From Eledone cirrhosa (lineage: Eukaryota): DNA of 64,000 nucleotides. Below the pieces are notes generated by a model that was not told the origin of the DNA, searched no databases, and worked only from the letters and a program-made list of their open reading frames with translations. The stretch spans positions 14,818,001 through 14,882,000 of the forward strand of contig OZ024742.1 of NCBI GenBank assembly GCA_964016885.1, given 5' to 3'. The position numbers and the translations under genes were made by a program. Below, piece by piece: positions 6,001-38,200 of the stretch (the first letter of the stretch is position 1; the number at the start of each line of letters is the position of its first letter).

Positions 6001-9000
6001 GGTGTATGTGTGTGTATAAGTTAAGATGTAATAGTATATATAGGTGTATGTGTGTGTGTAAGTTAAGATGTAATAATATATATAGGTGTATGTGTGTGTA
6101 AGTTAAGATGTAATAGTATATATAGGTGTATGTGTGTGTGTAAGTTAAGATGTAATAGTATATATAGGTGTATGTGTGTGTAAGTTAAGATGTAATAATA
6201 TATATAGGTGTATGTGTGTGTAAGTTAAGATGTAATAATATATATAGGTGTATGTGTGTGTAAGTTAAGATGTAATAATATATATAGGTGTATGTGTGTG
6301 TAAGTTAAGATGTAATAATATATATAGGTGTATGTGTGTGTAAGTTAAGATGTAATAATATATATAGGTGTATGTGTGTGTGTAAGTTAAGATGTAATAG
6401 TATATATAGGTGTATGTGTGTGTAAGTTAAGATGTAATAATATATATAGGTGTATGTGTGTGTAAGTTAAGATGTAATAGTATATATAGGTGTATGTGTG
6501 TGTGTAAGTTAAGATGTAATAGTATATATAGGTATATGTGTGTGTAAGTTAAGATGTAATAATATATATAGGTGTATGTGTGTGTGTAAGTTAAGATGTA
6601 ATAGTATATATAGGTGTATGTGTGTGTAAGTTAAGATGTAATAATATATATAGGTGTATGTGTGTGTGTAAGTTAAGATGTAATAGTATATACAGGTGTA
6701 TGTGTGTGTAAGTTAAGATGTAATAATATATATAGGTGTATGTGTGTGTGTAAGTTAAGATGTAATAGTATATATAGGTGTATGTGTGTGTGTAAGTTAA
6801 GATGTAATAGTATATATAGGTGTATGTGTGTGTGTAAGTTAAGATGTAATAGTATATATAGGTGTATGTGTGATGTAAGTTAAGATGTAATAGTATATAG
6901 GTGTATGTGTGTGTGTAATTTAAGATGTAATAGTATATATAGGTGTATGTGTGTGTGTAAGTTAAGATGTAATAGTATATATAGGTGTATGTGTGTGTGT
7001 AAGTTAAGATGTAATAGTATATATAGGTGTATGTGTGTGTGTAAGTTAAGATGTAATAGTATATATAGGTGTATGTGTGTGTGTAAGTTAAGATGTAATA
7101 GTATATATAGGTGTATGTGTGTGTGTAAGTTAAGATGTAATAGTATATATAGGTGTATGTGTGTGTGTAAGTTAAGATGTAATAGTATATATAGGTGTAT
7201 GTGGTGGTAAGTTAAGATGTAATAGTATATATAGGTGTATGTGTGTGTTTAAGTTAAGATGTAATAGTATATATAGGTGTATGTGTGTGTAAGTTAAGAT
7301 GTAATAATATATATAGGTGTATGTGTGTGTGTAATTTAAGATGTAATAGTATATATAGGTGTATGTGTGTGTAAGTTAAGATCGTAATAATATATATAGG
7401 TGTATGTGTGTGTGTAAGTTAAGATGTAATAGTATATATAGGTGTATGTGTGTGTAAGTTAAGATGTAATAATATATATAGGTGTATGTGTGTGTGTAAG
7501 TTAAGATGTAATAGTATATATAGGTGTATGTGTGTGTAAGTTAAGATGTAATAATATATATAGGTGTATGTGTGTGTGTAAGTTAAGATGTAATAGTATA
7601 TATAGGTGTGTGTGTGTAAGTTAAGATGTAATAGTATATATAGGTGTATGTGTGTGTAAGTTAAGATGTAATAGTATATATAGGTGTATGTGTGTGTGTA
7701 AGTTAAGATATAATAGTATATATAGGTGTATGTGTGTGTAAGTTAAGATGTAATAATATATATAGGTGTATGTGTGTGTAAGTTAAGATGTAATAATATA
7801 TATAGGTGTATGTGTGTGTAAGTTAAGATGTAATAATATATATAGGTGTATGTGTGTGTAAGTTAGATGTAATAGTATATATAGAGCTGTGTGTGTAAGT
7901 TAAGATGTAATAATATATATAGGTGTATGTGTGTGTAAGTTAAGATGTAATAATATAATATAGGTGTATGTGTGTGTGTAAGTTAAGATGTAATAGTATA
8001 TATAGGTGTATGTGTGTGTGTAATTTAAGATGTAATAGTATATATAGGTGTATGTGTGTGTGTAAGTTAAGATGTAATAGTATATATAGGTGTATGTGTG
8101 ATGTAAGTTAAGATGTAATAGTATATATAGGTGTATGTGTGTGTGTAAGTTAAGATGTAATAGTATATATAGGTGTATGTGTGTGTAAGTTAAAATGTAA
8201 TAATATATATAGGTTTATGTGTGTGTAAGTTAAGATGTAATAGTATATATAGGTGTATGTGTGTGTGTAAGTTAAGATGTAATAATATATCTTGGTGTAT
8301 GTGTGTGTATAAGTTAAGATGTAATAGTATATATAGGTGTATGTGTGTGTGTAAGTTAAGATGTAATAATATATATAGGTGTATGTGTGTGTAAGTTAAG
8401 ATGTAATGATGTATATAGGTGTATGTGTGTGTAAGTTAAGATGTAATAATATATATAGGTGTATGTGTGTGTGTAAGTTAAGATGTAATAGTATATATAG
8501 GTGTATGTGTGTGTAAGTTAAGATGTAATAATATATATAGGTGTATGTGTGTGTGTAAGTTAAGATGTAATAGTATATATAGGTGTATGTGTGTGTAAGT
8601 TAAGATGTAATAATATATATAGGTGTATGTGTGTGTGTAAGTTAAGATGTAATAGTATATATAGGTGTATGTGTGTGTGTAAGTTAAGATGTAATAGTAT
8701 ATATAGGTGTATGTGTGTGTGTAAGTTAAGATGTTATAGTATATATAGGTGTATGTGTGTGTGTAAGTTAAGATGTAATAGTATATATAGGTGTATGTGT
8801 GTGTAAGTTAAGATGTAATAGTATATATAGGTGTATGTGTGTGTTTAAGTTAAGATGTAATAGTATATATAGGTGTATGTGTGTGTAAGTTAAGATGTAA
8901 TAATATATATAGGTGTATGTGTGTGTGTAATTTAAGATGTAATAGTATATATAGGTGTATGTGTGTGTAAGTTAAGATGTAATAATATATATAGGTGTAT

Positions 9001-12000
9001 GTGTGTGTGTGTAAGTTAAGATGTAATAGTATATATAGGTGTATGTGTGTGTGTAAGTTAAGATGTAATAATATATATAGGTGTATGTGTGTGTAAGTTA
9101 GATGTAATAATATATATAGGTGTATGTGTGTGTAAGTTAAGATGTAATAGTATATATAGGTGTATGTGTGTGTGTAAGTTAAGATGTAATAATATATATA
9201 GGTGTATGTGTGTGTAAGTTAAGATGTAATAATATATATAGGTGTATGTGTGTGTGTAAGTTAAGATGTAATAGTATATATAGGTGTATGTGTGTGTAAG
9301 TTAAGATGTAATAATATATATAGGTGTATGTGTGTGTGTAAGTTAAGATGTAATAATATATATAGGTGTATGTGTGTGTAAGTTAAGATGTAATAGTATA
9401 TATAGGTGTATGTGTGTGTGTAAGTTAAGATGTAATAATATATATAGGTGTATGTGTGTGTAAGTTAAGATGTAATAATATATATAGGTGTATGTGTGTG
9501 TAAGTTAAGATGTAATAATATATATAGGTGTATGTGTGTGTGTAAGTTAAGATGTAATAGTATATATAGGTGTATGTGTGTGTGTAAGTTAAGATGTAAT
9601 AATATATATAGGTGTATGTGTGTGTAAGTTAAGATGTAATAATATATATAGGTGTATGTGTGTGTAAGTTAGGATGTAATAATATATATAGGTGTATGTG
9701 TGTGTGTAAGTTAAGATGTAATAATACATATAGGTGTATGTGTGTGTGTAAGTTAAGATGTAATAGTATATATAGGTGTATGTGTGTGTGTAAGTTAAGA
9801 TGTAATAGTATATATAGGTGTTGTGTGTGTAAGTTAAGATGTAATAGTATATATAGGTGTATGTGTGTGTAAGTTAAGATGTAATAGTATATATAGGTGT
9901 ATGTGTGTGTGTAAGTTAAGATATAATAGTATATATAGGTGTATGTGTGTGTAAGTTAAGATGTAAATAATATATATAGGTGTATGTGTGTGTAAGTTAA
10001 GATGTAATAATATATATAGGTGTATGTGTGTGTAAGTTAAGATGTAATAATATATATAGGTGTATGTGTGTAAGTTAAGATGTAATAGTATATATAGGTG
10101 TGTGTGTAAGTTAAGATGTAATAATATATATAGGTGTATGTGTGTGTAAGTTAAGATGTAATAATATATATAGGTGTATGTGTGTGTGTAAGTTAAGAGG
10201 TAATAGTATATATAGGTGTATGTGTGTGTGTAAGTTAAGATGTAATAATATATATAGGTGTATGTGTGTGTAAGTTAGATGTAATAATATATATAGGTTT
10301 ATGTGTGTGTAAGTTAAGATGTAATAGTATATATAGGTGTATGTGTGTGTGTAAGTTAAGATGTAATAATATATATAGGTGTATGTGTGGTGTATAAGTT
10401 AAGATGTAATAGTATATATAGGTGTATGTGTGTGTGTAAGTTAAGATGTAATAATATATATAGGTGTATGTGTGTGTAAGTTAAGATGTAATGATATATA
10501 TAGGTGTATGTGTGTGTGTGTAAGTTAAGATGTAATAGTATATATAGGTGTATGTGTGTGTGTAAGTTAAGATGTAATAATATATATAGGTGTATGTGTG
10601 TGTAAGTTAAGATGTAATAATATATATAGGTGTATGTGTGCGTAAGTTAAGTGTAATAATATATATAGGTGTATGTGTGTGTGTAAGTTAAGATGTAATA
10701 GTATATATAGGTGTATGTGTGTGTGTAAGTTAAGATGTAATAGTATATATAGGTGTATGTGTGTGTGTAAGTTAAGATGTAATAATATATATAGGTGTAT
10801 GTGTGTGTAAGTTAAGATGTAATGATATATATAGGTGTATGTGTGTGTAAGTTAAGATGTAATAGTATATATAGGTGTATGTGTGTGTGTAAGTTAAGAT
10901 GTAATAATATATATAGGTGTATGTGTGTGTAAGTTAAGATGTAATAATATATATAGGTGTATGTGTGTGTAAGTTAAGATGTAATAATATATATAGGTGT
11001 ATGTGTGTGTGTAAGTTAAGATGTAATAGTATATATAGGTGTATGTGTGTGTGTAAGTTAAGATGTAATAGTATATATAGGTGTATGTGTGTGTAAGTTA
11101 AGATGTAATAGTATATATAGGTGTATGTGTGTGTGTAAGTTAAGATGTAATAGTATATATAGGTGTATGTGTGTGTAAGTTAAGATGTTATAATATATAT
11201 AGGTGTATGTGTGTGTAAGTTAAGATGTAATAATATATATAGGTGTATGTGTGTGTGTAAGTTAAGATGTAATAGTATATATAGGTGTATGTGTGTGTGT
11301 AAGTTAAGATGTAATAGTATATATAGGTGTATGTGTGTGTAAGTTAAGATGTAATAATATATATAGGTGTATGTGTGTGTGTAATTTAAGATGTAATAGT
11401 ATATATAGGTGTATGTGTGTGTAAGTTAAGATGTAATAATATATATAGGTGTATGTGTGTGTGTAAGTTAAGATGTAATAGTATATATAGGTGTATGTGT
11501 GTGTAAGTTAAGATGTAATAATATATATAGGTGTATGTGTGTGTGTGTAAGTTAAGATGTAATAGTATATACAGGTGTATGTGTGTGTAAGTTAAGATGT
11601 AATAGTATATATAGGTGTATGTGTGTGTGTAAGTTAAGATGTAATAGGATATATAGGTGTATGTGTGTGTGAAGTTAAGATGTAATAGTATATATAGGTG
11701 TATGTGTGTGTGTAAGTTAAGATGTAATAGTATATATAGGTGTATGTGTGTGTAAGTTAAGATGTAATAATATATATAGGTGTATGTGTGTGTGTAAGTT
11801 AAGATGTAATAGTATATATAGGTGTATGTGTGTGTAAGTTAAGATGTAATAATATATATAGGTGTATGTGTGTGTGTAAGTTAAGATGTAATAGTATATA
11901 CAGGTGTATGTGTGTGTAAGTTAAGATGTAATAATATATATAGGTGTATGTGTGTGTGTAAGTTAAGATGTAATAGTATATATAGGTGTATGTGTGTGTG

Positions 12001-15000
12001 TAAGTTAAGATGTAATAGTATATATAGGTGTATGTGTGTGTGTAAGTTAAGATGTAATAGTATATATAGGTGTATGTGTGTGTGTAAGTTAAGATGTAAT
12101 AGTATATATAGGTGTATGTGTGTGTGTAAGTTAAGATGTAATAGCTATATATAGGTGTATGTGTGTGTGTAAGTTAAGATGTAATAGTATATATAGGTGT
12201 ATGTGTGTGTTAAGTTAAGATGTAATAGTATATATAGGTGTATGTGTGTGTAAGTTAAGATGTAATAATATATATAGGTGTATGTGTGTGTGTAATTTAA
12301 GATGTAATAGTATATATAGGTGTATGTGTGTGTAAGTTAAGATGTAATAATATATATAGGTGTATGTGTGTGTGTAAGTTAAGATGTAATAGTATATATA
12401 GGTGTATGTGTGTGTAAGTTAAGATGTAATAATATATATAGGTGTATGTGTGTGTGTAAGTTAAGATGTAATAGTATATACAGGTGTATGTGTGTGTAAG
12501 TTAAGATGTAATAGTATATATAGGTGTATGTGTGTGTAAGTTAAGATGTAATAATATATATAGGTGTATGTGTGTGTGTAAGTTAAGATGTAATAATATA
12601 TATAGGTGTATGTGTGTGTGTAAGTTAAGATGTAATAGGATATATAGGTGTATGTGTGTGTGTAAGTTAATATGTAATAGTATATATAGGTGTATGTGTG
12701 TGTGTAAGTTAAGATGTAATAGTATATATAGGTGTATGTTTGTGTGTAAGTTAAGATGTAATAGTATATATAGGTGTATGTGTGTGTGTAAGTTAAGATG
12801 TAACAATATATATAGGTGTATGTATGTGTAAGTTAAGATGTAATAATATATATAGGTGTATGTGTGTGTGTAAGTTAAGATGTAATAATATATATAGGTG
12901 TATGTGTGTGTAAGTTAAGATGTAATAGTGTATATAGGTGTATGTGTGTGTGTAAGTTAAGATGTAATAATATATATAGGTGTATGTGTGTGTAAGTTAA
13001 GATGTAATAATATATATAGGTGTATGTGTGTGTGTAAGTTAAGATATAATAGTATATATAGGTGTATGTCTGTGTGTAATTTAAGATGTAATAGTATATA
13101 TAGGTGTATGTGTGTGTGTAAGTTAAGATGTAATAACATATATAGGTGTATGTGTGTGTGTAAGTTAAGATGTAATAGTATATATAGGTGTATGTGTGTG
13201 TAATTTCAGATGTAATAATATATATAGGTGTATGTGTGTGTGTAGGTTAAGATGTAATAATATATATAGGTGTATGTGTGAGTGTAAGTTAAGATGTAAT
13301 AATATATATAGGTGTATGTGTGTGTAAGTTAAGATGTAATAGTATATATAGGTGTATGTGTGTGTGTAAGTTAAGATGTAATAGTATATATAGGTGTATG
13401 TGTGTGTGTAAGTTAAGATGTAATAGTATATATATAGGTGTATGTGTGTGTGTAAGTTAAGATGTAACTAATATATATAGGTGTATGTGTGTGTGTATGT
13501 TAAGATGTAATAATATATATAGGTGTATGTGTGTGTGTAAGTTAAGATGTAATAGTATATATAGGTGTATGTGTGTGTAAGTTAAGATGTAATAGTATAT
13601 ATAGGTGTATGTGTGTGTGTAAGTTAAGATGTAATAATATATATAGGTGTATGTGTGTGTAAGTTAAGATGTAATAGTATATATAGGTGTATGTGTGTGT
13701 GTAAGTTAAGATGTAATAGTATATATAGGTGTATGTGTGTGTAAGTTAAGATGTAATAATATATATATAGGTGTATGTGTGTGTGTAAGTTAAGATGTAA
13801 TAATATATATAGGTGTATGTGTGTGTGTAAGTTAAGATGTAATAATATATATAGGTGTATGTGTGTGTAAGTTAAGATGTAATAGTATATATAGGTGTAT
13901 GTGTGTGTGTATGTTAAGATGTAATAATATATATAGGTGTATGTGTGTGTAAGTTAAGATGTAATATTATATATAGGTGTATGTGTGTGTAAGTTAAGAT
14001 GTAATAGTATATATAGGTGTATGTGTGTGTGTAAGTTAAGATGTAATAATATATATAGGTGTATGTGTGTGTAAGTTAAGATGTAATAATATATATAGGT
14101 GTATGTGTGTGTAAGTTAAGATGTAATAATATATATAGGTGTATGTGTGTGTAAGTTAAGATGTAATAATATATATAGGTGTATGTGTGTGTAAGTTAAG
14201 ATGTAATAATATATATAGGTGTATGTGTGTGTAAGTTAAGATGTAATAATATATATAGGTGTATGTGTGTGTAAGTTAAGATGTAATAATATATATAGGT
14301 GTATGTGTGTGTAAGTTAAGATGTAATAGTATATATAGGTGTATGTGTGTGTGTAAGTTAAGATGTAATAGTATATATAGGTGTATGTGTGTGTAAGTTA
14401 AGATGTAATAATATATATAGGTATATGTGTGTGTAAGTTAAGATGTAATAATATATATAGGTGTATGTGTGTGTGTAAGTTAAGATGTAATAGTATATAT
14501 AGGTGTATGTGTGTGTGTATGTTAAGATGTAATAATATATATAGGTGTATGTGTGTGTAAGTTAAGATGTAATAGTATATATAGGTGTATGTGTGTGTAA
14601 GTTAAGATGTAATAGTATATATAGGTGTATGTGTGTGTGTAAGTTAAGATGTAATAATATATATAGGTGTATGTGTGTGTAAGTTAAGATGTAATAATAT
14701 ATATAGGTGTATGTGTGTGTAAGTTAAGATGTAATAATATATATAGGTGTATGTGTGTGTAAGTTAAGATGTAATAATATATATAGGTGTATGTGTGTGT
14801 AAGTTAAGATGTAATAATATATATAGGTGTATGTGTGTGTAAGTTAAGATGTAATAATATATATAGGTGTATGTGTGTGTAAGTTAAGATGTAATAATAT
14901 ATATAGGTGTATGTGTGTGTAAGTTAAGATGTAATAGTATATATAGGTGTATGTGTGTGTGTAAGTTAAGATGTAATAGTATATATAGGTGTATGTGTGT

Positions 15001-18000
15001 GTAAGTTAAGATGTAATAATATATATAGGTATATGTGTGTGTAAGTTAAGATGTAATAATATATATAGGTGTATGTGTGTGTGTAAGTTAAGATGTAATA
15101 GTATATATAGGTGTATGTGTGTGTAAGTTAAGATGTAATAATATATATAGGTGTATGTGTGTGTGTAAGTTAAGATGTAATAGGATATATAGGTGTATGT
15201 GTGTGTGTAAGTTAATATGTAATAGTATATATAGGTGTATGTGTGTGTGTAAGTTAAGATGTAATAGTATATATAGGTGTATGTTTGTGTGTAAGTTAAG
15301 ATGTAATAGTATATATAGGTGTATGTGTGTGTGTAAGTTAAGATGTAACAATATATATAGGTGTATGTATGTGTAAGTTAAGATGTAATAATATATATAG
15401 GTGTATGTGTGTGTGTAAGTTAAGATGTAATAATATATATAGGTGTATGTGTGTGTAAGTTAAGATGTAATAGTGTATATAGGTGTATGTGTGTGTGTAA
15501 GTTAAGATGTAATAATATATATAGGTGTATGTGTGTGTAAGTTAAGATGTAATAATATATATAGGTGTATGTGTGTGTGTAAGTTAAGATATAATAGTAT
15601 ATATAGGTGTATGTCTGTGTGTAATTTAAGATGTAATAGTATATATAGGTGTATGTGTGTGTGTAAGTTAAGATGTAATAACATATATAGGTGTATGTGT
15701 GTGTGTAAGTTAAGATGTAATAGTATATATAGGTGTATGTGTGTGTAATTTCAGATGTAATAATATATATAGGTGTATGTGTGTGTGTAGGTTAAGATGT
15801 AATAATATATATAGGTGTATGTGTGTGTGTAAGTTAAGATGTAATAATATATATAGGTGTATGTGTGTGTAAGTTAAGATGTAATAGTATATATAGGTGT
15901 ATGTGTGTGTGTAAGTTAAGATGTAATAGTATATATAGGTGTATGTGTGTGTGTAAGTTAAGATGTAATAGTATATATAGGTGTATGTGTGTGTGTAAGT
16001 TAAGATGTAACAATATATATAGGTGTATGTGTGTGTGTATGTTAAGATGTAATAATATATATAGGTGTATGTGTGTGTGTAAGTTAAGATGTAATAGTAT
16101 ATATAGGTGTATGTGTGTGTAAGTTAAGATGTAATAGTATATATAGGTGTATGTGTGTGTGTAAGTTAAGATGTAATAATATATATAGGTGTATGTGTGT
16201 GTAAGTTAAGATGTAATAGTATATATAGGTGTATGTGTGTGTGTAAGTTAAGATGTAATAGTATATATAGGTGTATGTGTGTGTAAGTTAAGATGTAATA
16301 ATATATATAGGTGTATGTGTGTGTGTAAGTTAAGATGTAATAATATATATAGGTGTATGTGTGTGTGTAAGTTAAGATGTAATAATATATATAGGTGTAT
16401 GTGTGTGTAAGTTAAGATGTAATAGTATATATAGGTGTATGTGTGTGTGTATGTTAAGATGTAATAATATATATAGGTGTATGTGTGTGTAAGTTAAGAT
16501 GTAATAGTATATATAGGTGTATGTGTGTGTAAGTTAAGATGTAATAGTATATATAGGTGTATGTGTGTGTGTAAGTTAAGATGTAATAATATATATAGGT
16601 GTATGTGTGTGTAAGTTAAGATGTAATAATATATATAGGTGTATGTGTGTGTAAGTTAAGATGTAATAATATATATAGGTGTATGTGTGTGTAAGTTAAG
16701 ATGTAATAATATATATAGGTGTATGTGTGTGTAAGTTAAGATGTAATAATATATATAGGTGTATGTGTGTGTAAGTTAAGATGTAATAATATATATAGGT
16801 GTATGTGTGTGTAAGTTAAGATGTAATAATATATATAGGTGTATGTGTGTGTAAGTTAAGATGTAATAGTATATATAGGTGTATGTGTGTGTGTAAGTTA
16901 AGATGTAATAGTATATATAGGTGTATGTGTGTGTAAGTTAAGATGTAATAATATATATAGGTATATGTGTGTGTAAGTTAAGATGTAATAATATATATAG
17001 GTGTATGTGTGTGTGTAAGTTAAGATGTAATAGTATATATAGGTGTATGTGTGTGTGTATGTTAAGATGTAATAATATATATAGGTGTATGTGTGTGTAA
17101 GTTAAGATGTAATAGTATATATAGGTGTATGTGTGTGTAAGTTAAGATGTAATAGTATATATAGGTGTATGTGTGTGTGTAAGTTAAGATGTAATAATAT
17201 ATATAGGTGTATGTGTGTGTAAGTTAAGATGTAATAATATATATAGGTGTATGTGTGTGTAAGTTAAGATGTAATAATATATATAGGTGTATGTGTGTGT
17301 AAGTTAAGATGTAATAATATATATAGGTGTATGTGTGTGTAAGTTAAGATGTAATAATATATATAGGTGTATGTGTGTGTAAGTTAAGATGTAATAATAT
17401 ATATAGGTGTATGTGTGTGTAAGTTAAGATGTAATAATATATATAGGTGTATGTGTGTGTAAGTTAAGATGTAATAGTATATATAGGTGTATGTGTGTGT
17501 GTAAGTTAAGATGTAATAGTATATATAGGTGTATGTGTGTGTAAGTTAAGATGTAATAATATATATAGGTATATGTGTGTGTAAGTTAAGATGTAATAAT
17601 ATATATAGGTGTATGTGTGTGTGTAAGTTAAGATGTAATAGTATATATAGGTGTATGTGTGTGTAAGTTAAGATGTAATAATATATATAGGTATATGTGT
17701 GTGTAAGTTAAGATGTAATAATATATATAGGTGTATGTGTGTGTGTAAGTTAAGATGTAATAGTATATATAGGTGTATGTGTGTGTGTATGTTAAGATGT
17801 AATAGTATATATAGGTGTATGTGTGTGTGGAAGTTAAGATGTAATAATATATATAGGTGTATGTGTGTGTGTATGTTAAGATGTAATAGTATATATAGGT
17901 GTATGTGTGTGTGTAAGTTAAGATGTAATAATATATATAGGTGTATGTGTGTGTGTATGTTAAGATGTAATAGTATATATAGGTGTATGTGTGTGTTTAA

Positions 18001-18486
18001 GTTAAGATGTAATAATATATATAGGTGTATGTGTGTGTGTATGTTAAGATGTAATAGTATATATAGGTGTATGTGTGTGTAAGTTAAGATGTAATAGTAT
18101 ATATAGGTGTATGTGTGTGTGTAAGTTAAGATGTAATAATATATATAGGTGTATGTGTGTGTGTAAGTTAAGATGTAATAGTATATATAGGTGTATGTGT
18201 GTGTAAGTTAAGATGTAATAATATATATAGGTGTATGTGTGTGTGTATGTTAAGATGTAATAGTATATATAGGTGTATGTGTGTGTGTAAGTTAAGATGT
18301 AATAGTATATATAGGTGTATGTGTGTGTGTATGTTAAGATGTAATAGTATATATAGGTGTATGTGTGTGTAAGTTAAGATGTAATAGTATATATAGGTGT
18401 ATGTGTGTGTGTATGTTAAGATGTAATAGTATATATAGGTGTATGTGTGTGTGTAAGTTAAGATGTAATAGTATATATAGGTGTAT
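1..18486. repeat. Large minisatellite array, 40/42-bp unit AAGTTAAGATGTAAT(A/AG)..TATATATAGGTGTAT(GT)n, about 450 copies, runs off the left edge
   Basis: Direct reading. Pure 40-bp period at 14041-14330; 42-bp units translate as KLRCNSIYRCMCVC. The array ends at ~18486. Confidence 0.98.
3807..4006. other. Assembly gap (200 N) inside the satellite
   Basis: Run of exactly 200 N. Confidence 1.
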
Positions 18487-20058: not shown

Positions 20059-21522
20059 AACCAGTCAACGCGATCAGTCGCATATTTTGGCGTGGGAGAC
20101 TATTTATTAAATTTAAGATGAATACTATCTCCGACAGTAATGCCACAACTACAGTCATGTTGAATAACTGGTTATTCTTCTAACTTTCCCTTCTGAAGAC
20201 ACCTTTTATTCGAATTCGTAGAGATATTCGACTAAATACATAATTCATTTTACAAGGATTTGCTACAAACAGCATGGCTGAACACAGCATCAGTGGAGTA
20301 CCGAAGAAAAACGAGAAAGGTAAACAAACTTTATTCAGTTGTAGCTACAGAAGAAACCGAAATTATAAATCGTATTTCTCTTGGAGTTGCGAACTTAATG
20401 ATGATTTATTTAATTGTTATAAAATGGCAAAAAACAATCCCTCCATTGGCTATATGAACAGAATGAAGCTACACTGGGACGAAATACACCCAGAGCTAAA
20501 TTATTTCACAGCGAAACAATTACGCCAACAAGCGACGTTTGTTGAACGAAAAAATAAGATAAATATTATTAATTGTAAGTCCCCCACAACAAACATGGAA
20601 TCAACAACACGTGCTACAGATCGCCATGCTACTAGACTTCCTAGCACCCAGGTCGAACACTACCTTGAAACAACTATGCCTATAAGAAACTTGACACCAC
20701 CTGTACCATCTAAGTCTACCTCGAATGCTGGGAAAACACTATCGATAATAATAATAATCGAAGAAATTTGACACCACGTGTACCATCCGTGTATACCTCA
20801 ACTGTTGTGGAAAATACTACCGATAATGATAATAATTGTTTCTACTTTTTGGCACAAGGCCAGCAATTATCCAGTGCATTGCTGGTACTTTATTTTATCG
20901 ACTCCGTAAGGACGAAAGGCAGAGTTAACCTCGGCGATAATGGTTTCTTATATATCGATATTGATAATAATCAAAAGTATAAACAATTGAAAATTTCCCT
21001 CAACGAAATCTTCCAGAGAGAAATGAACTCTTGCTGAACGTGTTAAAACAACAATATTTAATAAAAAAACAAATAATGAAATATTACGTGTTATTGACGA
21101 AATAAGGGATGAATATTTACGACGGATAAAAACCCCAACATTTTGGCAAATCAACGCCTGTTTATATGCCTTAGCAACGACAGTGAAACATTATCTTGGT
21201 GATAGCAGAGATATTAGCAAGAACAGAACACCACCAAAACTACCATCATCTCCTTATAATATATAACCAGCAATTTCTCTGTCTGTCTGTCCGACAGTGG
21301 AAACACGTACGCGCGTGGTTGCTATCTCTCTCTCCAGCTATCCCTCTCTTTTAGTCTGTCTGTTTCTCTCACTCTCACTCTTTCTCTTTGTAACACACTA
21401 ACATTCCTCCCCTCTATCGCTGTGACGAATGGGGAGATGGAGGAGGAGGAGAGAGTCACTTCGTCACTTCACCTCTGCCTTTCTTTCTCTCCCCTCTCAC
21501 TCCCTCATTACGTACAGACATT

Positions 21523-21695
21523 AGGGCGGTGGATTGGCAGAATCTGTAGAGAGTCGGACACCATGCTTCATAGCATGGAGTTACGTCCCTTTACGGTCTG
21601 AGTTCAAATACCGCCGAGGTTAACTTTGCCTTTCATCCTCACGGGGTCGATAAAATAAAGTACCAGTAATGTACTGGGTAATTGCTGGCCTTGTC
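21523..21695 (+). mobile_element. tRNA-derived SINE, family A
   Basis: A-box-like TGGCAGAATC, B-box GAGTTCAAAT, and conserved body CCTTTCATCCT..GGGGTCGATAAAATAAAGTACCAG shared with about a dozen copies in the window. Confidence 0.85.
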
Positions 21696-23027
21696 TATAT
21701 ATCTAAAACAGAGAATGTCTGTCTGACTCCCTAAAACCCGAGAACCACCCAACCGATTGTTTTCAAACTTTACACATATAATACTTATGGTCCTGTCCTG
21801 TGAGTGTTTTCAAATTGTCAATGCCCTAAGAACCGCATTAGGCGATTTAGCGATCTCTCTCTCTATAACTCTTAGTCTTTCTCTTTTTAGATAGATACAT
21901 AGATATAACTATTTCTACTTTAGGCACAAGGCCAGCAATTACCCAGTGCATTACTGGTACTTTATTTTATCGACCCCGTAAGGATGAAAGGCAAAGTCAA
22001 CCTCGGCTACATAGATATAACGTTGCGCCCTTATAATATCTGTCTGGCTGTCTGCATTACGACATTATGACGTTATGACGTAGCTGTGTGTGTGTGTATA
22101 TATCCTAAACGAACGGTAGTCCGTTTAGTAATATTGTTGTGGTCGTGTTTTCGTTGGCAACCGTCTGTTTACGACAGTACAGCGCGGCTCTACTTTATTT
22201 AACTGAGATAAAACTTATATGAGCATGAACAGTAGATCATTACGCATCTTTTGGCTTAAAAATCTAGAAATTTGGTCCAGCGGGAAAAAGTTTATAATCA
22301 AAGTTTGCTGATAAATCTTGTGTTCAAGTGAATGAGTAGTAAGCGTGACGCTAGGGGAGGTAATCCAGAAATGAATTTTTTTTTCGGCGGAACTCTTGTG
22401 ATTGTGATTACGTTAGTCAAATGTAGTCAAATCGCCGAATCCTCTCCTCCTAATTGACTACGCCATTTCTGCGTCAGTGTGAAACATTACTTCACTTTTC
22501 ACTGCTAAAATGCTTTTTAAATACTTCGTTAAAAATTTATGTTTATTATCAAAGCTATTTTTTGTACCAGTCTATCAATAGTTTGCGAAAATATAGGTAA
22601 ACATGTGAGTTAAATTTTTTTTAAACGCATCGATCGCTTCGTCGCACCGACTGTGACACTGTCTGACTGTCTGTCTGACTGACACCTTTGTCGGACCGAC
22701 ACCTTTGTTCAAGCGGACAACTTTGTGTCACTGACACCTTTGTTCGTGCCGGCATCTCTGCGAAACACCGATGACAACAACCAGACCAAAATTTCACTTC
22801 ATTCTTCATTCTTCTTCAAGACCGATCGTATCGGTTGCTCTTCATATACCAGGTATTCAACAGATAGTTTGCACTTCTAGTATTATTAACAGTTGTGCGA
22901 TTTTTTGTACCGATAGGTGCGAATAGTGCGCTATATTTTTGTACCGATAGGTGCGAATAGTGCGATAGGTGCGAATAGTGTACAATATTTTCTGAGATTT
23001 GCATCCACTAATTTCGCTTAATTAAAA

Positions 23028-23830
23028 ATGATGTTTCGCGGCTTTTTGATCGGCTTATTCATTTTTTCCATGGCACGGAAATGGAGTATTTCCATTTCGA
23101 ATCAAAACTTTTCACTAAAATCGGGCAATTGGACTGATCAAATTCACATTCATGCCAGTTTTTACAAATCCATAATTAGAAATGTGGCGAAATCGAATGA
23201 CCAGAAAGAAGGTATAAAAATATTAATAATTCAAATGTATTTACTTATCATACCAACAAAAATACTTAGATATTTTGTATACCTGGGGCCCGTCAGGGCC
23301 AGGTAATGTTAATCGCCAACATTGTTATCTGTTGTCCTTTTGTGAAAGTATTGGTGGTTCATGTCGGCTCTAATGATCTGAATCCTCGTCGCACCGTTGG
23401 CACTACAAAGCTGTGCAAAGTAATACAATAATTTTTGCCCAAGTATTTTTTATTAATCATTTATTTGTAAATTAAGGACAAAGTGCCCATTCGAGGCACA
23501 AAACTGGAAAAACAGGGGAAGAGTCTCTTTGCAAGGCTACAGAAAATAGCGGAAAAGCACCACTGTACACCCATTTTCTACAGTGGTGTCATTCCACGCC
23601 CACAAAGTGTAATTGAAAATAAAAATGACTTGGGCAAGAGAAATTCTCGTTTGGAAAAGTTTAATTACTGCATGAAAGAAATGATTCAAAAATTGAACTT
23701 GCCCAATCTTCACAACATTGAAAATTGGTCAAAATTTGACAAATCTTACTTCAAACCAGATATGATTCATTTGAACAATGTTGGAAATCTTAAATTGACA
23801 CAAATTTTTGCCAATGTTTTTGCCACCTGA
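23028..23830 (+). CDS. SGNH/GDSL-hydrolase-like gene (Helitron cargo, spliced; 5' exon structure uncertain, possibly pseudogene)
   Basis: Block-I-like KSIIRNV (not GDS). IFCIPGAR...VLVVHVGSNDL (23270-23419). 57-nt GT-AG intron 23420-23476 containing an in-frame stop. Then FYSGVIPR...PDMIHLNNVG to TGA 23830. AATAAA at ~23850. Confidence 0.72.
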
Positions 23831-24050
23831 CTGACTAATTTTGTGACTTAATAAAATGTCATCATACTAGTAATGCACAATGGTCATTTTTAAATTTAAA
23901 TTTTATTAAATAGTTGTTGCTTCCATTGCCTTAAAATAGTAACAAGAATGTGCACATACTTTTTTAAAATACATCATTATCAGTCAAATCAGTCAAATGT
24001 CACTAAAAGCCAGGTGATCGATAACAACTTCTATAAGATTAGTTACATGC

Positions 24051-24350
24051 TCACATTGGATCACCTCTCATCAATGGCATTGGGTGTCTGAGATAATCGT
24101 GGAGATAACTGATGAAGTCACAAATGAAGTGATGGTCTTCCAGTTTGAACAACTCCCTATATCCATTGATATATGTGATGGCTTCCGATTCGTAGGTGCG
24201 TTTTATGAGGAATTCCATGCATCCGATTTTCAGTGATTCAATGGGCATTTTATCAGAGATGATAAGGTATTTGACCACGTTTTGCTTTGTAAGTAAATTG
24301 GAGAGAATCACTGCAGTCAAAGTCATTTCTTTGCATGGGCTTTTGTCCAT
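24051..24350 (-). CDS. 99-aa ORF with BACK/BTB-C-terminal-like helical pattern (Helitron cargo)
   Basis: LSNLLTKQNVVKYLIISDKMPIESLKIGCMEFL resembles the L..EN...L..AD....LK..C..FI pattern that follows BTB domains. Preceded by a 43-nt GTAAGT...TTTTTAG intron (24352-24394); minus-strand AATAAA at ~23902-23907. Confidence 0.45.
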   Translation of the reverse strand: MDKSPCKEMTLTAVILSNLLTKQNVVKYLIISDKMPIESLKIGCMEFLIKRTYESEAITYINGYRELFKLEDHHFICDFISYLHDYLRHPMPLMRGDPM

Positions 24351-24624
24351 TCTAAAAAGTTAAAATGATAAAGTATTACTACTATATAACTTACATCTAT
24401 TGTTGTAACACCATTGAAATGCACAAGTTTCACCAATTCACTATTATGCACTAATCATCTCAAATGCATTCATGATTTACTAGCTTTGTCATTAAGCCAG
24501 TTGCCTCAACTAGATTGCAATTATACTCAAAAGAACTTTAAAATGTCAATCACTTGTCAGTAATTCACTATGATCATTTAATTATTAGATAGTTGTTGCT
24601 TACATTGCCTTAAAAAATAGTAGA

Positions 24625-26114
24625 CCAGATAGAAAAATGCGTACAGCAAAAAAAGTAATATTGTTGGAATATAAACCTTTAAAAATACAGGACAAGAAAC
24701 TAAAATAAAACTTTAAAAGAATAGGACAAGAAACTAAGATAAAACTTTGAAAGAATAGGACAAGAAACTAAGATAAAACTTTAAAGAATTGGACAAGAAA
24801 TAAAAAGTTTTACAATAATATTAGTGGCAAAATTTTTTTATTCGTTTCCTGTGCTATGCCCCAGTATCTTCTTGATTAGTGCATAATAATTGTCATGCTC
24901 TCATTGTGCGTTGCCCCTGAGCGGTTAGTTCTGGTTGGGGTTGGTTGGCTGAGCAGTTCTGCTCCGTCAGAATGACCATTGCAAGAAGAATTGGCCGATG
25001 CAGCTCTCCTCCAAGAATGCACTTCTGGTCCCGCAACACCAGACGAAGATGAAGAAGACGACCGGGACAAGATGTCGACTCTGACCACCGACTACGGCAC
25101 CTCCCTCAACCACCGGTCCTCCCTCCCTCTGTCCCGTCATCCCTCCAGTCCTCCTGCTCTCCCTTCCTGTACCAGAAAGCTGTGGCACGCATTCATCTGG
25201 ACTGCCGGACTTGAACTCAAGGACAAGATGCAAGGAGAAGATGGACGGGTTGGTCAAGATCAAGGATGAGCGGGACGACACGACCGTCCGCTGCTGCTCA
25301 AGATCTGTGCTCATGGGCCCATGGGTCCATTCACATTATGCATGACACATGAGGCGTGTCGCCGAATGATGAAATAGGGGTATGGTTATGGCCCAATTGG
25401 TGTTCAAACCAGGATCAAATGATCCCCCGGTCTGACGACGACCTCTGAATGACCCAGAGCCTATGAATGTGGAACTCGATTTTTTACCAATAAAAATTTT
25501 GCCACTAATATTATTGTAAAACTTTTTATTTCTTGTCCAATTCTTTAAAGTTTTATCTTAGTTTCTTGTCCTATTCTTTTAAAGTTTTATCTTAGTTTCT
25601 TGTCCTATTCTTTTAAAGTTTTATCTTAGTTTCTTGTCCTATTCTTTTAAAGTTTTATCTTAGTTTCTTGTCCTATTCTTTTAAAGTTTTATCTTAGTTT
25701 CTTGTCCTATTCTTTTAAAGTTTTATCTTAGTTTCTTGTCCTATTCTTTTAAAGTTTTATCTTAGTTTATTGTCCTATTCTTTTAAAGTTTTATCTTAGT
25801 TTCTTGTCCTATTCTTTTAAAGTTTTATCTTAGTTTCTTGTCCTATTCTTTTAAAGTTTTATCTTAGTTTCTTGTCCTATTCTTTTAAAGTTTTATCTTA
25901 GTTTCTTGTCCTATTCTTTTAAAGTTTTATCTTAGTTTCTTGTCCTATTCTTTTAAAGTTTTATCTTAGTTTCTTGTCCAATTCTTTTAAAGTTTTATCT
26001 TAGTTTATTGTCCTATTCTTTTAAAGTTTTATTTTAGTTTCTTGTCCTGTATTTTTAAAGGATTATATTCCAACAATATTACTTTTTTTTGCTGTACGCA
26101 TTTTTCTATCTGGT
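24625..26114. mobile_element. Foldback-like element: long inverted arms containing 34-bp tandem repeats around a GC-rich core
   Basis: ACCAGATAGAAAAATGCGTACAGC at ~24625 pairs with GCTGTACGCATTTTTCTATCTGGT ending ~26114. Arms ~24625-24838 and ~25491-26114. Confidence 0.8.
25530..26060. repeat. 34-bp tandem repeat, about 15 copies
   Basis: Unit AAAGTTTTATCTTAGTTTCTTGTCCTATTCTTTT, period 34 (25581 to 25615). Confidence 0.95.
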
Positions 26115-26141
26115 ATATATATACACACACACTATATACAC

Positions 26142-26211
<70 letters not shown>

Positions 26212-26309
26212 CGTAACGTTTTTCAAAATATTTATTTCTGCGTTCACAGATTGATTTTTTTTAGTTTCAGAAGATTCCGTTAAGGGTGAAAGCAGCGATT
26301 CTTTGCTTA

Positions 26310-26592
26310 AACTTTAATCTGGTCACGGAGCGTCGGTGCCTACTGGCTGGCCATATTCTGCGTCTGCCAAATGAACGGCATTCGAAAACACCGAGAACTG
26401 GACTCCGCCTGGAGGTAAACGGAGGCGGGGTTGCCCAAGGATCACCTGGCGACGAACGTTCCGGAAGGACCTGATGGCAGCCAACATCACCTGGCACGGT
26501 CTCGAAAAAGTTGCCGCTGATCGTGACCGTTGGCGAGCACTTACTGCTCGATACGCCGAACGGCACGGAAGAATCTAAGACTAAGACTAAGA
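26310..26592 (+). mobile_element. 3' fragment of a LINE (RTE-like) with (CTAAGA)3 tail
   Basis: ERRCLLAGHILRLPNER resembles the RRLRWxGHVxR C-terminal motif; short tandem tail follows. Confidence 0.55.
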
Positions 26593-27520
26593 TAATTATA
26601 TATTCGTGTACAGGTATTTTTGCATAAATAATAACAAAATATAAACAAAAGTATTTATTTCACGAGGCTCGAAAAGGATAAATATATATCGAATATATAA
26701 GAACCCTAGAGCAAATCCCGAGCAACGCCGGGCCATTCTGCTAGTATATAACTAAAATAGAGAAAAAGATTGCTGACCTATGAAAAACCATAGGATATGT
26801 GACAATGCTCCTTACATGCAAACAAACACAAAAAACCTCATTCCTCACCAACAAAGAGTGATAAATAAAATAGAGACGATGTTTTGTAACAGTAGAATCA
26901 GACCTCTTCAATATAAGCTGATCACCCTCAAACAACAATTGAGAGTTGTTAGCGACAAACGACGATACCTGAAGAAGGTAGATGAAAGAAGAGTGCTTAA
27001 TAAACGATTTAGACGAAACCAAACATCAGTCTATAGAGATATGAAGGGCAAAATAATAAGTGTCACTGAGGCCCCATCCCAGAAAGACATAGATTCCTTT
27101 TAGAGAAAAATATGGGGTGAAAAGAAGAATTTCAACCAAGATGCAGTGTGGCTAAAAGAAATCCAAAAGAACTATTGCTCCTACACTACAACAAAAACAT
27201 ACGAAATAAGTGAGGGTACCCTTGAGAGTGTGTTAGGAAAATTCCAAGATAAGAAAACACCAGGAAGAGACATGATTGTCGGCTACTGGTACAAAAAACT
27301 GATATTCTATCGGAGGTATCTTACTTACCTCTACCAACAAGTTCTTAAGGGAGATACACTTATACCAGAATGGTTGACATTAGCACAAACATTACTGGTC
27401 CCCAAGAACAAAGACATCCACCTGGCAAAAAATCTAGCGACCCATTGCATGCCAGTACCTGATGTATAAGATGTATACAGCCTGCCTGAACCTATTCCTC
27501 CAAGATCACTGTGAAAATAA

Positions 27521-27701
27521 TTGTTTCTACTTTAGGCACAAGGCCAGCAATTACCCAGTACATTACTGGTACTTTATTTTATCGACCCCGTAAGGATGAA
27601 AGGCAAAGTCAACCTCGGCGGGATTTGAACTCAGATCGTAAAGGGACGTAACTATGCTGGAAAGCATGGCGTCCGACCCTCTACCGATACTGCCAATCCA
27701 C
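27521..27701 (-). mobile_element. Family A SINE with 14-bp TSD inside the R4 RT region
   Basis: CACTGTGAAAATAA at 27507-27520 and 27702-27715; removal restores DHCENNNIITDEQ. Confidence 0.92.
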
Positions 27702-29500
27702 CACTGTGAAAATAATAACATCATCACAGATGAACAAGCAGCTGGAAAGAAAGGGGTTTGGGGATGTGCTGAACACCTCCTAATCAACAAAACTGCGATG
27801 TCGGAGGTGCGACAACTTAGGAGGAATATGGCTACAGTCTGGCTGGACTACAGGAAAGCTTTCGATTCTGTTCCCCACTCTTGGGTGATAGAGGCCCTCC
27901 GACTTGCTAAAGTCCCAGACATTTTTGTCAGGGCAATAGAGAAGCTGTCTTCTTCTTGGGCTACTATCCTAAGGTTAAAGACAGAGAGGGAGGACTCTAT
28001 TTTCACTGATAAAATAAAATATCACAGGAGTATATTTCAGGGAGACAATCTCTCGTGATATTATTCATCTTGTCATTAAACCCCTAACTCATAATTTCTT
28101 TGTGGATGATCTGAAACTCTATGCCAAGAACATGGATGGGATGAAGAAAAATCTTGACCTGGTTACAACGTTCTCAAAGGATATAGGAATGGAGTTTGGC
28201 CAAGATAAATGCTCATACATGACTCTAAAGCGGGGAAAACAAAAACCCAATCTAGCAACATTGTCATCAATGGCCTAACTGTTTCACCGATATCTGATGA
28301 GGACTGCTACAGATACCTGGGGATAGATGAGAACATATCCTATAATGGTATCTGTAATAAGGAACGCATAACCAGGGAATACTACACTCGATTAAGAAAG
28401 ATTTGGTCATCGGAACTCTCTGCGCAAAACAAAACAGTGGCTCACAATGTGTTTGCTGTGCCTGTCCTAACACCAACGTTTGGAATACTCAATTGGACGA
28501 TAGACGAAATCCGAGAGATTGATGTTGGAACTCGAAAAATACTAAACAACACCGGAAACTTCCACATCAACAGTGACATAGACCGCCTTTACTTGAAACA
28601 TAAGCAGGGAGGCAGAGGCCTAACATCAGCCCAGACAGAATTTGATTGTCGCATCATATCCCTCCGACAACATCTACGAACCTCGAAGCGTAGGAGCCCG
28701 CTTCTCGAGCAAGTCTATCTGCATGAAACAGATAAGTTCATGAGAGTTGGGAAGGAACTCCTCGAGAGATATTCCCTGTGTGATAATCAAAACTCACACC
28801 CAGGGAAGTCGCTCAGCAGTATCGCAGTGAATCCATAGATGAAAAACTGCATGCTTATCAGCAAAAAATCATGTATGGATATGTTGCCAGGAAGCTCCAG
28901 AGTGAGAGTAATATAGATAAGGAAAGTAGTCTATCTTGGACCAACAACCGCTATATTTGCTCCCACTTTGAAGGATACGCTTTTGCAATCCAAGAACAGG
29001 AGATTAACACGAAATACCTGATTCACAAAAGAGATAGGGATGCAGGCAAAACACCTAGATGTGATAACAAGTACAGACTCTGCAGAATTAACATCGAAGA
29101 TGTAACCCATGTCATAAGCAGCTGTCCAAAGATGTCATCGCGGTACTATCTACCTATCAGGCATGATGTAGTGACCAAGACACTGTACAATGCAATCCGT
29201 AGAAAAGATAGCCCTGATAATAAACACATTAAAAGCTACAGCAATGTGGAAGGCATACATATCCATAATATGAATGAGTACTGGTGGATATACACATGTA
29301 CAGATACTAAGCATATACACATGCACACATACAACTCAAAACATACACATCCATACCTACACACACATGCAGACATGCAGACATATCTACCTAGTTGATG
29401 CTGTGTAAATTCCAATGAGAGAGTCTTGTGTCTATGTTAGAAACTGACTCTCTCTCTATTGGCAAACATTTGTAGAATTACAAAACCAGAAGAACATACA

Positions 29501-35284: not shown

Positions 35285-38200
35285 CATGCTGTAAAATGGA
35301 GGGGTAGAGAGGGCCCATGAGTCCAGTAAGACATCCTCTCTAGTGCTGGTGGCACGAATAAAAGCATCTAGTCCATGCTGTAAAGTGGTGCTGGTGTTAG
35401 GAAGGGCATCCAACCAGTATATATACTACTGCCAAAAACTATGAGCACAACAAATGAGAATTGCAGCAACTGCATCAACAGCAATAACACTAACCATGTT
35501 AGGGCTGCACATGGTAGTGGGGTGGCTGGTGCGGCCATATGCGAGAACCCCCCGACCGTCATCAAGCAATCGCACTACAGGAAAAGGAACAAGAATATGA
35601 AGACGTCGCATCTCAGAGTTGCAACACTTAATGTTTGCACTCTCATAGGTAGATCTGGTGAAATAGCAGAGTTGCTGGAGAGAAGGCATGTGGATGTGTG
35701 CTGCGTGCAAGAGGTGAGATGGAGAGGTGCCTCCGTGAGACTAATCGAGACATCTTAATTATAAGCTTTTATGGGTAGGTAAGGATGATGGGTTAGGGGG
35801 AGTAGACATTTTCCTGGCTGAGAGATGGATCGATAAGACAATAGAGGTAGTTTGAGTTAATAATAGAATAATTAAGCTTAGATTAGTTGTAGGCAGGAGA
35901 CTACTGACAATCATCTCTGCCTATGCTCCCCGGGCAGGCCTAGGTAAAGAAGATAAAGACTGCTTTTACGAGCAACTTTTACAAACAGCCGCAATGACAG
36001 AGGATGGAGACATTGTTATGCTAGCAGGGGACTTAAATGGTCATGTTGGACAGCTCCAGGATGGTTACACTGGGGTACATGGTGGGCACGGTTACAGCTC
36101 AAGAAATGAAGAAGGAGTGAGACTTCTTGAATTTTGTGATTCAAGTGCACTAACCATTTGCAACACTAACTTCCAGAAACCTACCAACCACCTAATAACC
36201 TACAAATCAGGCAAGCACATAAGCCAGATTGACTTCTTACTAGTTAGGCAGCAGGACAGGCAGATTGTGTCAAATACCAAGGCATAACCTGGGGGAGAAT
36301 GTACCCCCACAGCATAGGTTAGTCGTTAGTGATATCTCAGTAAGCAAGAGACGAAATGAGACATACAGGAAGGTGTGGAGAAGAGAGGTCTGGAAGCTAA
36401 AAGACTAAAATACAAATTTAGGAAAGCCCTTCAAGATGTGTATGACGAAAAAGAAGACAATTTAGAGTCGTATGACATAGATGATAACTGGAATTTCTTA
36501 CGTGACAACTTACTGCCGGCTACTGATGAAACTTGTGGCTGGAGCTCTGCTCCAGCCAGACAGAGAGTGACCTGGTGGTGGAACAGCACGGTAGATAGGG
36601 CCATTAGAGACAAAAGACTAGCATGGAATGATGGAAAAAGGGTGGGAGTAGAGAAGGATATACAGTCGCTAAGAGGGAAGCTTGACGTCAGGTGTACTTA
36701 GCACGCAGGGAGGCTGTGAGTAGGAGGTTTGCCAATGTTCTGTGACGGGAAGATCAGAGACGTGCAGTGTTCCGCATTGCAAGGCAGTGTGTCATTGTAA
36801 ATCAGGATGTTGTTGGAGATAAATGTGTCTGGAATGATGCCGGTGTACTTAGTGTCACAGATGATCAGAAAAATGTGGCCTGAAAATGTTGTTATGAGAG
36901 ACTGATGAATGTGGAGAACGAATGGGAGAGAGAGAGAAATTACCCTCAGTAGATCTGACAGAGGGACCAGCTATTGAGATTGACGAATATAGGGTCCAAG
37001 AGGTGATAAAGGAAATGAAAAATGGTAAGGCCGCTGGACCGTCGGGGATAGTTGCTGAGATGCTGAAAGCATCAGGGTACGTAGGCACTAAACTGGTTGC
37101 ACACATCATCAATCAGGCTATATATGGTGGTGTCATACCCAAAGACTGGTGCAGCAGTATTCTCATAAATTGCTACAAAGGTAAAAGGGGTGCTCTGGAG
37201 AGGAGCAATTATAGGGGTATAAAACTGATGGATCAGGTTATGAAAGTGGCAGAAAGGATATTAGCGCAACTAATTAGAGAAAGGGTCAAACTAGATGAGA
37301 TGCAATTTGGTTTTGTGCCTGGGAAAAGTACAACAGATGCCCTCTTGGTGAGACAATTACAAGAGAGGTTCTTAGAGAAAAATAAGCCACTATACTTAGC
37401 TTTTGTTGATCTAGAGAAGGCCTTTCTCTATGCTGACGATCTGGTTCTTATAGCAGAATAAGTAGAGGAGCTAGATAATAAATTCTGGCTATGGAAACAG
37501 ACAGCAGTTGGAATCAAGAGGACTGAGAGTGAACCTAGCTAAAATAAAAGTGTTGATGAGTAGAAAAGATGACAAAACTCTGATTCCATCAGGGAAATGG
37601 CCATGTTCGATATGCAGAAAATGAACTGGCATAAATTCTATAAAATGCACACAATGCAGATCCTGGGTACACAAGAGATGTAGTGGGATAACAGGCAAAC
37701 TAACAGGTAGGGAGAAATACGTATGCAGTAGATGTACAGGGAAATTTGACAGAAGAAGTCGCATTGATAGACACATTTTTCAAGGGTAGTTGGGTTCTAT
37801 AGAAGTGGTTGATAACTTCCGGTACCTAGGTGATCAGATTAGCATGGGAGGGGGTGTTCTGAGGCCATAGTATCTAGAATAAGGACGGGTTGGAAGAAGT
37901 TTAGGGAGCTGCTTCCTCTGCTGACGAAGAAGGGTTTCTCCCTGCATACGAAAGGCCGGTTATATAATGCCTTTGTGAGGAGCGCGATGCTGCATGGTAG
38001 TGAGACATGGGCAGCAACTGCAGAGGATATGCGATGGCTGGAGAGAAATTAGGCAAGCATGCTCTGTTGGATGTGCAAATTCAATGTGTGTGAACGACCC
38101 AGCATGAATGTGTTGAGAGAGAAACTGTGTCTGAGAGGGATAGAATATAGTGTGCGAGAGAGGAGACTTAGGTGGTATGGACATGTGATGCGCATGGAGG

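Follow-up and report, generated by a model that had tools for sequence, protein, structure and literature searches.

The SGNH-hydrolase-like gene described here lies in the window, i.e. the whole stretch of 64,000 nt of Eledone cirrhosa DNA that was analysed. It is best explained, with a probability of roughly 80%, as a hybrid, made by deletion and carried by a non-autonomous Helitron, which likely spread as non-functional cargo by means of the Helitron transposase (RepHel) acting in trans. By comparison with a RepHel-encoding parent element, the hydrophobic start of the gene and its FYKS motif are assigned to the RepHel open reading frame, to which the SGNH part was joined by the deletion. 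The gene is made of the following parts (positions in the window).

23028..23172, plus strand: RepHel-derived part of exon 1, comprising the transposase ORF from its start codon to codon 48, with the hydrophobic leader and Ser48 (23169-23171)
23169..23172, plus strand: junction of the deletion, which took out about 8,985 nt and with them Gly-Asp and strand beta-1; TCnA microhomology, imperfect, at the two breakpoints
23172..23211, plus strand: SGNH-derived remainder of exon 1, from comparison with the GDS-bearing loci and the parent
23203..23206, plus strand: private 4-nt duplication that frameshifts the window copy, from alignment with paralogues
23212..23269, plus strand: predicted intron 1, GT..AG, 58 nt long here and 55 nt in most copies; phase 0 in paralogues
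23270..23419, plus strand: exon 2 with SGNH block II (Gly) and block III (Asn), from motifs, homolog alignment and profile match
23420..23476, plus strand: predicted intron 2, 57 nt, GT..AG, phase 0, two in-frame TAA stops
23477..23830, plus strand: exon 3 with SGNH block V (Asp-x-x-His) and the stop codon, from motifs, Atlas and fold search

The gene starts with an ATG at 23028 on the plus strand. FYKSIIRNV lies in the frame of this start codon, and its Ser codon occupies 23169-23171. CIPGAR (from 23276), HVGSND (23360-23377), SGVIPR and D..H (Asp at 23759-61 and His at 23768-70, the residues of block V) are all in another frame. A preliminary description of the region had listed these four blocks in order after removal of a 57-nt segment, and each of them was found where it had been placed. 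FYKSIIRNV had been taken for a divergent block I of the esterase; its place and the frame mismatch were confirmed, but its codons are attributed to RepHel. Similarly, the N-terminus is hydrophobic as described (an 11-residue window reaches a hydropathy of 2.5 at residues 6-16), but it corresponds to the start of the Helitron RepHel ORF (codons 1-48) and not to a signal of the esterase itself. The end of the gene, formerly set at 23856, is moved to the stop codon at 23828-23830. Another Ser, four residues upstream, was considered for block I and ruled out by the parent junction.

The gene occurs in multiple copies. Searched at the DNA level, the same genome delivered 347 first-look candidates, of which 40 were scored (96-97% identity), and 30 of the scored loci were aligned to judge the exon/intron model. 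The 4-nt duplication occurs in the window copy only: it is absent from all 29 other loci of the alignment and also from the main contigs of the four public runs. Because of this private duplication, exon 1 and the rest of the gene are out of frame with each other in the window copy, which, from its sequence, cannot make the hybrid protein at all. The three-exon model yields a 227-aa frame in 21 of the 30 loci and a 233-aa frame in one, and is broken in eight, including the window copy. A non-canonical or mutated donor near 23220 had been proposed; the donor of intron 1 is a canonical GT at 23212, and the window copy is simply frameshifted. The comparison of paralogues that had been called for settled exon 1, with its canonical donor, and the Ser in the catalytic position was traced to RepHel through the parent. 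The 57-nt segment also stands as a predicted intron in the paralogues (GT..AG, phase 0, in-frame stops common to all copies); its GT/AG ends are kept in 28 of the 30 loci and its length in all of them. We infer that both short GT-AG segments are spliced. No intron-skipping joints were seen in the contigs of the four public runs, which are contigs of unknown kind with no bearing on expression. Exon 2 contains another GT-AG segment, of 46 nt (23303-23348), which was not accepted as an intron: without it, blocks II and III would no longer be in one frame, and alignments with the homologs continue across it.

The domain is assigned to the alpha/beta SGNH type beyond chance, and Atlas, the fold searches and the profile match to PDB 4c1b agree on this. 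Exon 3 lies near GDSL clusters in Atlas (0.91-0.92). Scanning of cluster representatives with HMMER gave three matches, two of which are real homologs, P0001 (E 1.4e-07) and P0002 (E 5.1e-04), the latter with a NADAR domain ahead of its SGNH part (E 1.4e-12); the third, the fibronectin-repeat phosphatase P0003, was set aside as matching by chance. A profile built from three sequences (the gene and both homologs) matched the ZfL2-1 LINE ORF1 esterase (PDB 4c1b) with an E value of 1.8e-11, the next match having 0.58. A structure was predicted for exons 2-3, read through intron 2, from 3 sequences (pLDDT 57.9, low confidence). With this low-confidence model, the top rows of the fold search were nearly all SGNH/GDSL-type esterases (best Z 9.5, rmsd 3.2, 140 residues), and Foldseek reached a best E value of 3.8e-03. 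The preliminary description had named the OSK domain as a place where this SGNH type occurs; in the fold search, OSK came at rank 25 (Z 7.9) among many other SGNH structures, and nothing ties the gene to Oskar. The Pfam family Lipase_GDSL_2 was matched below cut-off by the query lacking exon 1 (E 0.046, 14.7 bits against a gathering score of 32.9); the outside homologs P0001 and P0002 are likewise under this gathering score, and Pfam on single exons found no SGNH family. Matches to the SGNH fold, whose absence would have refuted the preliminary description, were obtained, but none to Lipase_GDSL_2 above cut-off. Word-index protein searches with exon 3, P0002 and alignment A1 (range 470-2000 aa, outside of which the 335 aa of the parent protein lie) gave no further relatives. 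In the window gene, the Gly of block II, the Asn of block III and the Asp-x-x-His of block V are present. The G-D-S of block I with its preceding strand is absent from the hybrid, which displays Y-K-S from RepHel instead, while GDS is present in the parent.

The gene is carried by a 4-kb element that was inserted into an older one. The features of both are as follows.

22103..26113, plus strand: Helitron-like element of the HLE2, 5'-hairpin type, non-autonomous and derived from a 12.6-kb RepHel element by internal deletion; bounded as A↓TC ... CTGG↓T (arrows mark the boundaries)
22105..22128, plus strand: 5'-terminal hairpin, 10-bp stem and 4-nt loop, one mismatch in the window copy
22127..22139, plus strand: left 13-bp asymmetric terminal inverted repeat, from comparison with the right repeat
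26071..26083, minus strand: right-hand copy of the 13-bp inverted repeat, located 30 nt before the 3' end
24621..26117, no strand assigned: long inverted duplication of the element's 3' end, arms at about 24621-24837 and 25492-26117, with a 34-bp tandem unit in variable number
21694..26744, plus strand: older short canonical Helitron-like element (TC ... hairpin, CTAG), whose TA tract is the insertion site of the 4-kb element
23993..24350, minus strand: convergent 119-codon intronless ORF, BTB/BACK-like by language-model (Atlas) features only (0.91)

The 5' boundary A↓TC was found in 18 of 20 long loci (not found in two) and the 3' boundary CTGG↓T in 17 of 20 (not found in three). The empty site is represented by 7 of 11 relatives of the older outer element, which run from about 22101 to 26113-26321 without the insert. 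Reading of the flanks by eye revealed no target-site duplication, the target being A↓T. The strong hairpin is that of the 5' end: the 5' end of the parent folds at -10.2 kcal/mol, and the last 60 nt of the element at only -2.7 kcal/mol. The hairpin located 10-12 nt before a 3' CTRR, typical of canonical Helitrons (HLE1), was accordingly missing. Both DUF6570 and short asymmetric inverted repeats, given as HLE2 markers in the available text of PMC11417382, are present. The insertion site is A↓T and not the T↓T of HLE2; HLE2-reverse, according to the accessible part of PMC5148889, has no established insertion preference. A RepHel partner with Rep and PIF1 helicase has both of the same termini, which places the element among Helitrons, though all ten long copies examined are frameshifted or broken. 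The element is taken as a young, non-autonomous one of the HLE2, 5'-hairpin type. An intronless ORF1 upstream of a reverse transcriptase, as in LINEs with an ORF1 esterase, was not found: predicted introns are present, and none of the ORFs of the parent element codes for a reverse transcriptase. Readings of the element as DIRS/Ngaro, Polinton, foldback or LINE were dropped once the RepHel parent had been found. An Rfam search over 21500-27000 gave nothing real, hence no hammerhead and no support for a Penelope-like element.

Still shorter deletion forms, which lack the 5' half of the gene, are seen in DNA contigs with abundant joints 22374-23648 and 22374-24481. The last 200-600 nt of the element are repeated in inverted orientation about 0.7 kb upstream. 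The sister subfamily shares this layout, which is therefore old; such an arrangement could fold a single-stranded intermediate back on itself. The 119-codon ORF has its 119 aa in 14 of the 16 copies (of 20) in which a start was found, is cut short in the window by a 2-nt deletion near 24051, and had no match in Pfam.

The RepHel partner was reached via the GDS-bearing loci; the 30 best Helitron_like_N loci, tried as its source, had no DNA in common with the element. A search based on P0001 gave 30 loci, 27 of them with the junction of the window and three with GDS after the end of NADAR. DNA upstream of GDS was found at seven places by DNA search, in a word-based first look. The parent element, at one of these places (L112+L113), is 12,628 nt long and has the same termini as the 4-kb element. 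It matches the Pfam families Helitron_like_N (5.7e-28), DUF6570 (6.6e-16), PIF1 (8e-27) and UCH (6e-07, a C-terminal UCH protease). Its RepHel is frameshifted, and a NADAR-SGNH gene follows 3' of RepHel on the same strand, with five exons and four predicted GT-AG introns (54, 213, 55 and 57 nt) in a 335-aa frame. This frame is open in one of the five copies holding all exons, a copy with Asn in place of the block V Asp. The homologs P0001 and P0002 display the same layout of NADAR end and GDS. Against them the GDS form scores 95.5 and 83.6 bits and the hybrid 58.2 and 63.5 bits, a gap that is partly due to the NADAR end. The NADAR of the parent is YbiA-type: judged by eye from the spacing of the motifs, a distance of seven residues separates its Glu from its Lys, and the last strand holds another Glu; Pfam NADAR matches of the individual exons are below cut-off. 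The earlier proposal of an SGNH domain like that of LINE ORF1 esterases, carried within a DNA element, is upheld by the profile match to 4c1b, the element ends and the RepHel parent.

The four segments of the parent gene are all GT..AG, three of them measure 54-57 nt, their phases jointly restore the 335-aa NADAR-SGNH frame, and they are, stops included, common to all copies. This makes it hardly credible that the short GT-AG segments remain unspliced and that the locus is a dead pseudogene with insertions, even if BLAST scores rise only slightly without intron 2 (from 60.1 to 64.3 and from 54.3 to 57.0 bits). That gain is small because intron 2 lies in a variable loop. The second NADAR intron of L112 (213 nt) contains an apparent small inverted-repeat insert, which is common to all copies examined. 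In another GDS-bearing long copy (L115-L117), a related non-autonomous element, belonging to the sister subfamily, interrupts the same intron, and a further insert lies elsewhere.

The first 48 codons of the parent's RepHel frame are those of the window gene; in a second long copy, this frame stays open over >300 codons. After these 48 codons, RepHel continues to a 2A-like motif and the remaining transposase. In the hybrid, RepHel codons 1-48 lead in frame into SGNH just after its Ser, and all of NADAR is gone. BLAST alignments of the hybrid to the homologs begin only at or after this Ser. The preferred reading, a deletion hybrid, would imply the following course. A RepHel-encoding HLE2 element carrying an accessory NADAR-SGNH gene would have undergone a microhomology-mediated deletion (~9 kb, TCnA), giving a non-autonomous form of 3.6-4 kb with both termini kept. 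Since the TCnA microhomology includes the Ser codon, Ser may have come into catalytic position, and the frame may have been kept, without selection. Expression of the hybrid would depend on the promoter and start codon of RepHel; lacking Gly-Asp and the central strand beta-1, the protein would be a poor esterase or fail to fold. RepHel supplied in trans would have amplified the short form with the hybrid frame as cargo, and the window copy would have been frameshifted afterwards.

At RepHel residues of about 65-82, the hydrophobic leader ends in the 2A-like motif G-C-V-E-L-N-P-G-P, identical in four long copies including the sister subfamily (G000:C2 copy L126-L127, L141, L143 and L151). The 2A consensus is given as G-D-V/I-E-x-N-P-G-P in the available text of PMC3708506, and Cys for Asp may make the motif of RepHel a weaker one. 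Helitrons are not mentioned in the accessible portions of two papers on 2A.

Selection was evaluated on 49 hybrid copies, i.e. 30 loci of the own-genome DNA search and 19 of the 30 loci of the P0001 search, with duplicates, GDS forms and truncated copies excluded; sampling by best match favours copies near the window sequence. They display 57 synonymous, 155 missense and 10 nonsense changes against neutral expectations of 54.9, 156.1 and 10.9 (omega 0.96, p 0.76). The copies depart from the majority state by about 0.7%, too little for selection on the lineage to be visible. As neutrality after insertion is expected even for working transposon genes, omega tests the copies and not the source element. 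Within these limits, the pattern of changes shows a young burst with neutral decay. The frame is open in 27 of the 49 copies, and 19 of the 49 in addition retain all four splice dinucleotides and those catalytic residues that were checked (Ser, Asn block, Asp-x-x-His).

The fusion is in frame, Ser is in register, the other three blocks are kept and the leader is hydrophobic. The hybrid occupies 27 of the 30 P0001-search loci and is far more numerous than the GDS form (347 against 8 first-look candidates, which are not copy numbers), and 19 of 49 hybrid copies look intact. These features would suit a newborn working gene, whose leader directs the product to the membrane or secretory path, whose RepHel Ser48 acts as nucleophile and whose product aids the spread of the subfamily. 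We consider this very improbable: the Ser codon lies within the microhomology, so that the register needs no selection, Gly-Asp and beta-1 are lost, and alignments to the homologs start no earlier than Ser. Moreover, DNA contigs also contain, in abundance, the shorter derivatives without the 5' half of the gene, and the protein of a non-autonomous element would act in trans, with scant advantage for its own family. Birth of a new enzyme gene in a single step, by which the esterase gained a transposase promoter, a signal-like leader and a catalytic Ser and the hybrid swept the genome because it works, is regarded as very improbable. Under the preferred reading of a deletion hybrid carried as cargo, the window copy is dead and the hybrid probably idle.

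The NADAR-SGNH gene of the parent is likely an accessory enzyme pair, combining an ADP-ribose eraser and an esterase. Esterase activity is plausible, as all four blocks are present, and so is NADAR activity, judged by motif spacing against the accessible text of PMC11543638. RepHel was recovered at >=90% identity in 23 of 75 matches, and none of six further such RepHel loci has the whole NADAR-SGNH gene. In the sister subfamily (81-88% identical), both copies examined have the ends and RepHel and no NADAR-SGNH cassette. In a 61%-identical family, tblastn gave no NADAR-SGNH match within 20 kb of any of four copies. The absence of the cassette from the sister subfamily and the 61%-identical family indicates that it is dispensable; it was likely picked up or lost recently and is not needed for movement of the element. 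The four copies examined of this 61%-identical HLE2 family (L153-L160) have unbroken RepHel-UCH frames of 2,230-2,245 aa, and the family was probably active recently. Among the ten long RepHel copies noted above, no unbroken frame was found.

As to where the parent cassette comes from, a recently captured host gene or LINE ORF1 piece, carried passively and never used by the Helitron, is a possible but rather doubtful source; it is compatible with a deletion origin of the hybrid. The closest solved sequence is the ZfL2-1 ORF1 esterase, NADAR is known in ORF1 of oyster Tx1 LINEs (from the available part of PMC12477816), and the cassette is missing from the sister subfamily. However, all seven GDS-bearing places lie inside this Helitron family, with no free host or LINE-linked copy in a word-based look that can miss diverged copies. 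Predicted introns are also present, and no reverse transcriptase is adjacent within the element.

Intron-bearing SGNH genes in DNA elements, considered unusual in the preliminary description, have a published precedent in texim, SGNH hydrolase genes with up to 15 exons in fish Helitrons (Tomaszkiewicz et al., 2014, PMC4021074; PMC7643365; accessible text). The earlier surprise is thereby largely answered. Compared by description, texim and the present gene have in common introns, kinship with CR1-type retrotransposon esterases, transport by Helitrons and multiple copies. Whereas texim is located 5' of the Helitron coding region and counts as many as 15 exons, the parent gene found here has 5 exons and lies 3' of RepHel. 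It has an N-terminal NADAR, which the available texim text does not mention, and the common form in the present family is a RepHel-SGNH deletion hybrid.

The element resembles HLE2-reverse/FoHeli3-5 and proto-Helentron, as far as presented in the accessible parts of PMC11417382 and PMC5148889, in its 5' stem-loop, the lack of a strong 3' hairpin and, for the parent, a length of about 12 kb. It also shares with them a 13-bp asymmetric inverted repeat whose right copy lies 30 nt from the end, and DUF6570 and UCH in RepHel. According to the same sources, these elements come from Fusarium and Phytophthora, whereas the host of the present one is an animal with a genome of 3 Gb. The present element also differs in the long inverted duplication at its 3' end and in being inserted at A↓T with TC..CTGG ends, as in HLE1. 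Neither NADAR nor SGNH was found in the HELIANO text and supplement (PMC11417382), where naming as lipase was not cleanly covered. With the ORF1 esterase of the LINE ZfL2-1 (PDB 4c1b), the gene has the same block motifs, and the predicted model matches its fold (Z 6.8, rmsd 2.8, 100 residues); unlike that esterase, it is predicted to be spliced, lies in a DNA transposon and is fused to NADAR or to a RepHel leader. NADAR domains in transposons are reported from Ectocarpus Gypsy Pol and oyster Tx1 ORF1 in the available text of PMC12477816. Unlike these, the present NADAR is fused to SGNH, predicted to be spliced, carried by a rolling-circle DNA element and wholly deleted from the window copy. 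In guanine-ADP-ribose hydrolases, the NADAR residues are E43, K50 and E125 (accessible text of PMC11543638 and PMC11125620), and by eye the Glu/Lys/Glu spacing of the parent NADAR matches them.

The general theme, a spliced SGNH gene with a Helitron and NADAR in retroelements, is already in print; neither a NADAR-SGNH fusion in a Helitron nor a RepHel-SGNH hybrid appeared in a search of the freely accessible literature. The locus offers a traceable case in which a Helitron deletion builds an intact-looking spliced gene that misleads annotation: it has a signal-like start, an open frame and the catalytic residues, but its front end is transposase. In addition, it documents a 5'-hairpin HLE2 element from an animal and a NADAR-SGNH fusion carried by a rolling-circle element. 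If the parent enzyme pair is active, it would give a testable handle on why transposons carry SGNH esterases and on whether transposons remove ADP-ribose marks from the DNA intermediates they form.

Elsewhere in the window, an 18.5-kb array with a 41-42-bp unit and near-complete strand skew (G without C) occupies 1-18486. A 6.3-kb array with a 36-bp unit at 51246-57524 displays minus-strand open frames of >2,000 codons with no convincing Pfam match. Decayed pieces of LINE-type reverse transcriptases and an LTR-type RT-RNase H piece are located at 26777-29398, 35384-37461, 40247-42133, 45151-46008 and 47059-48046, and two of the LINE-type pieces have a PHD-like finger after RT.
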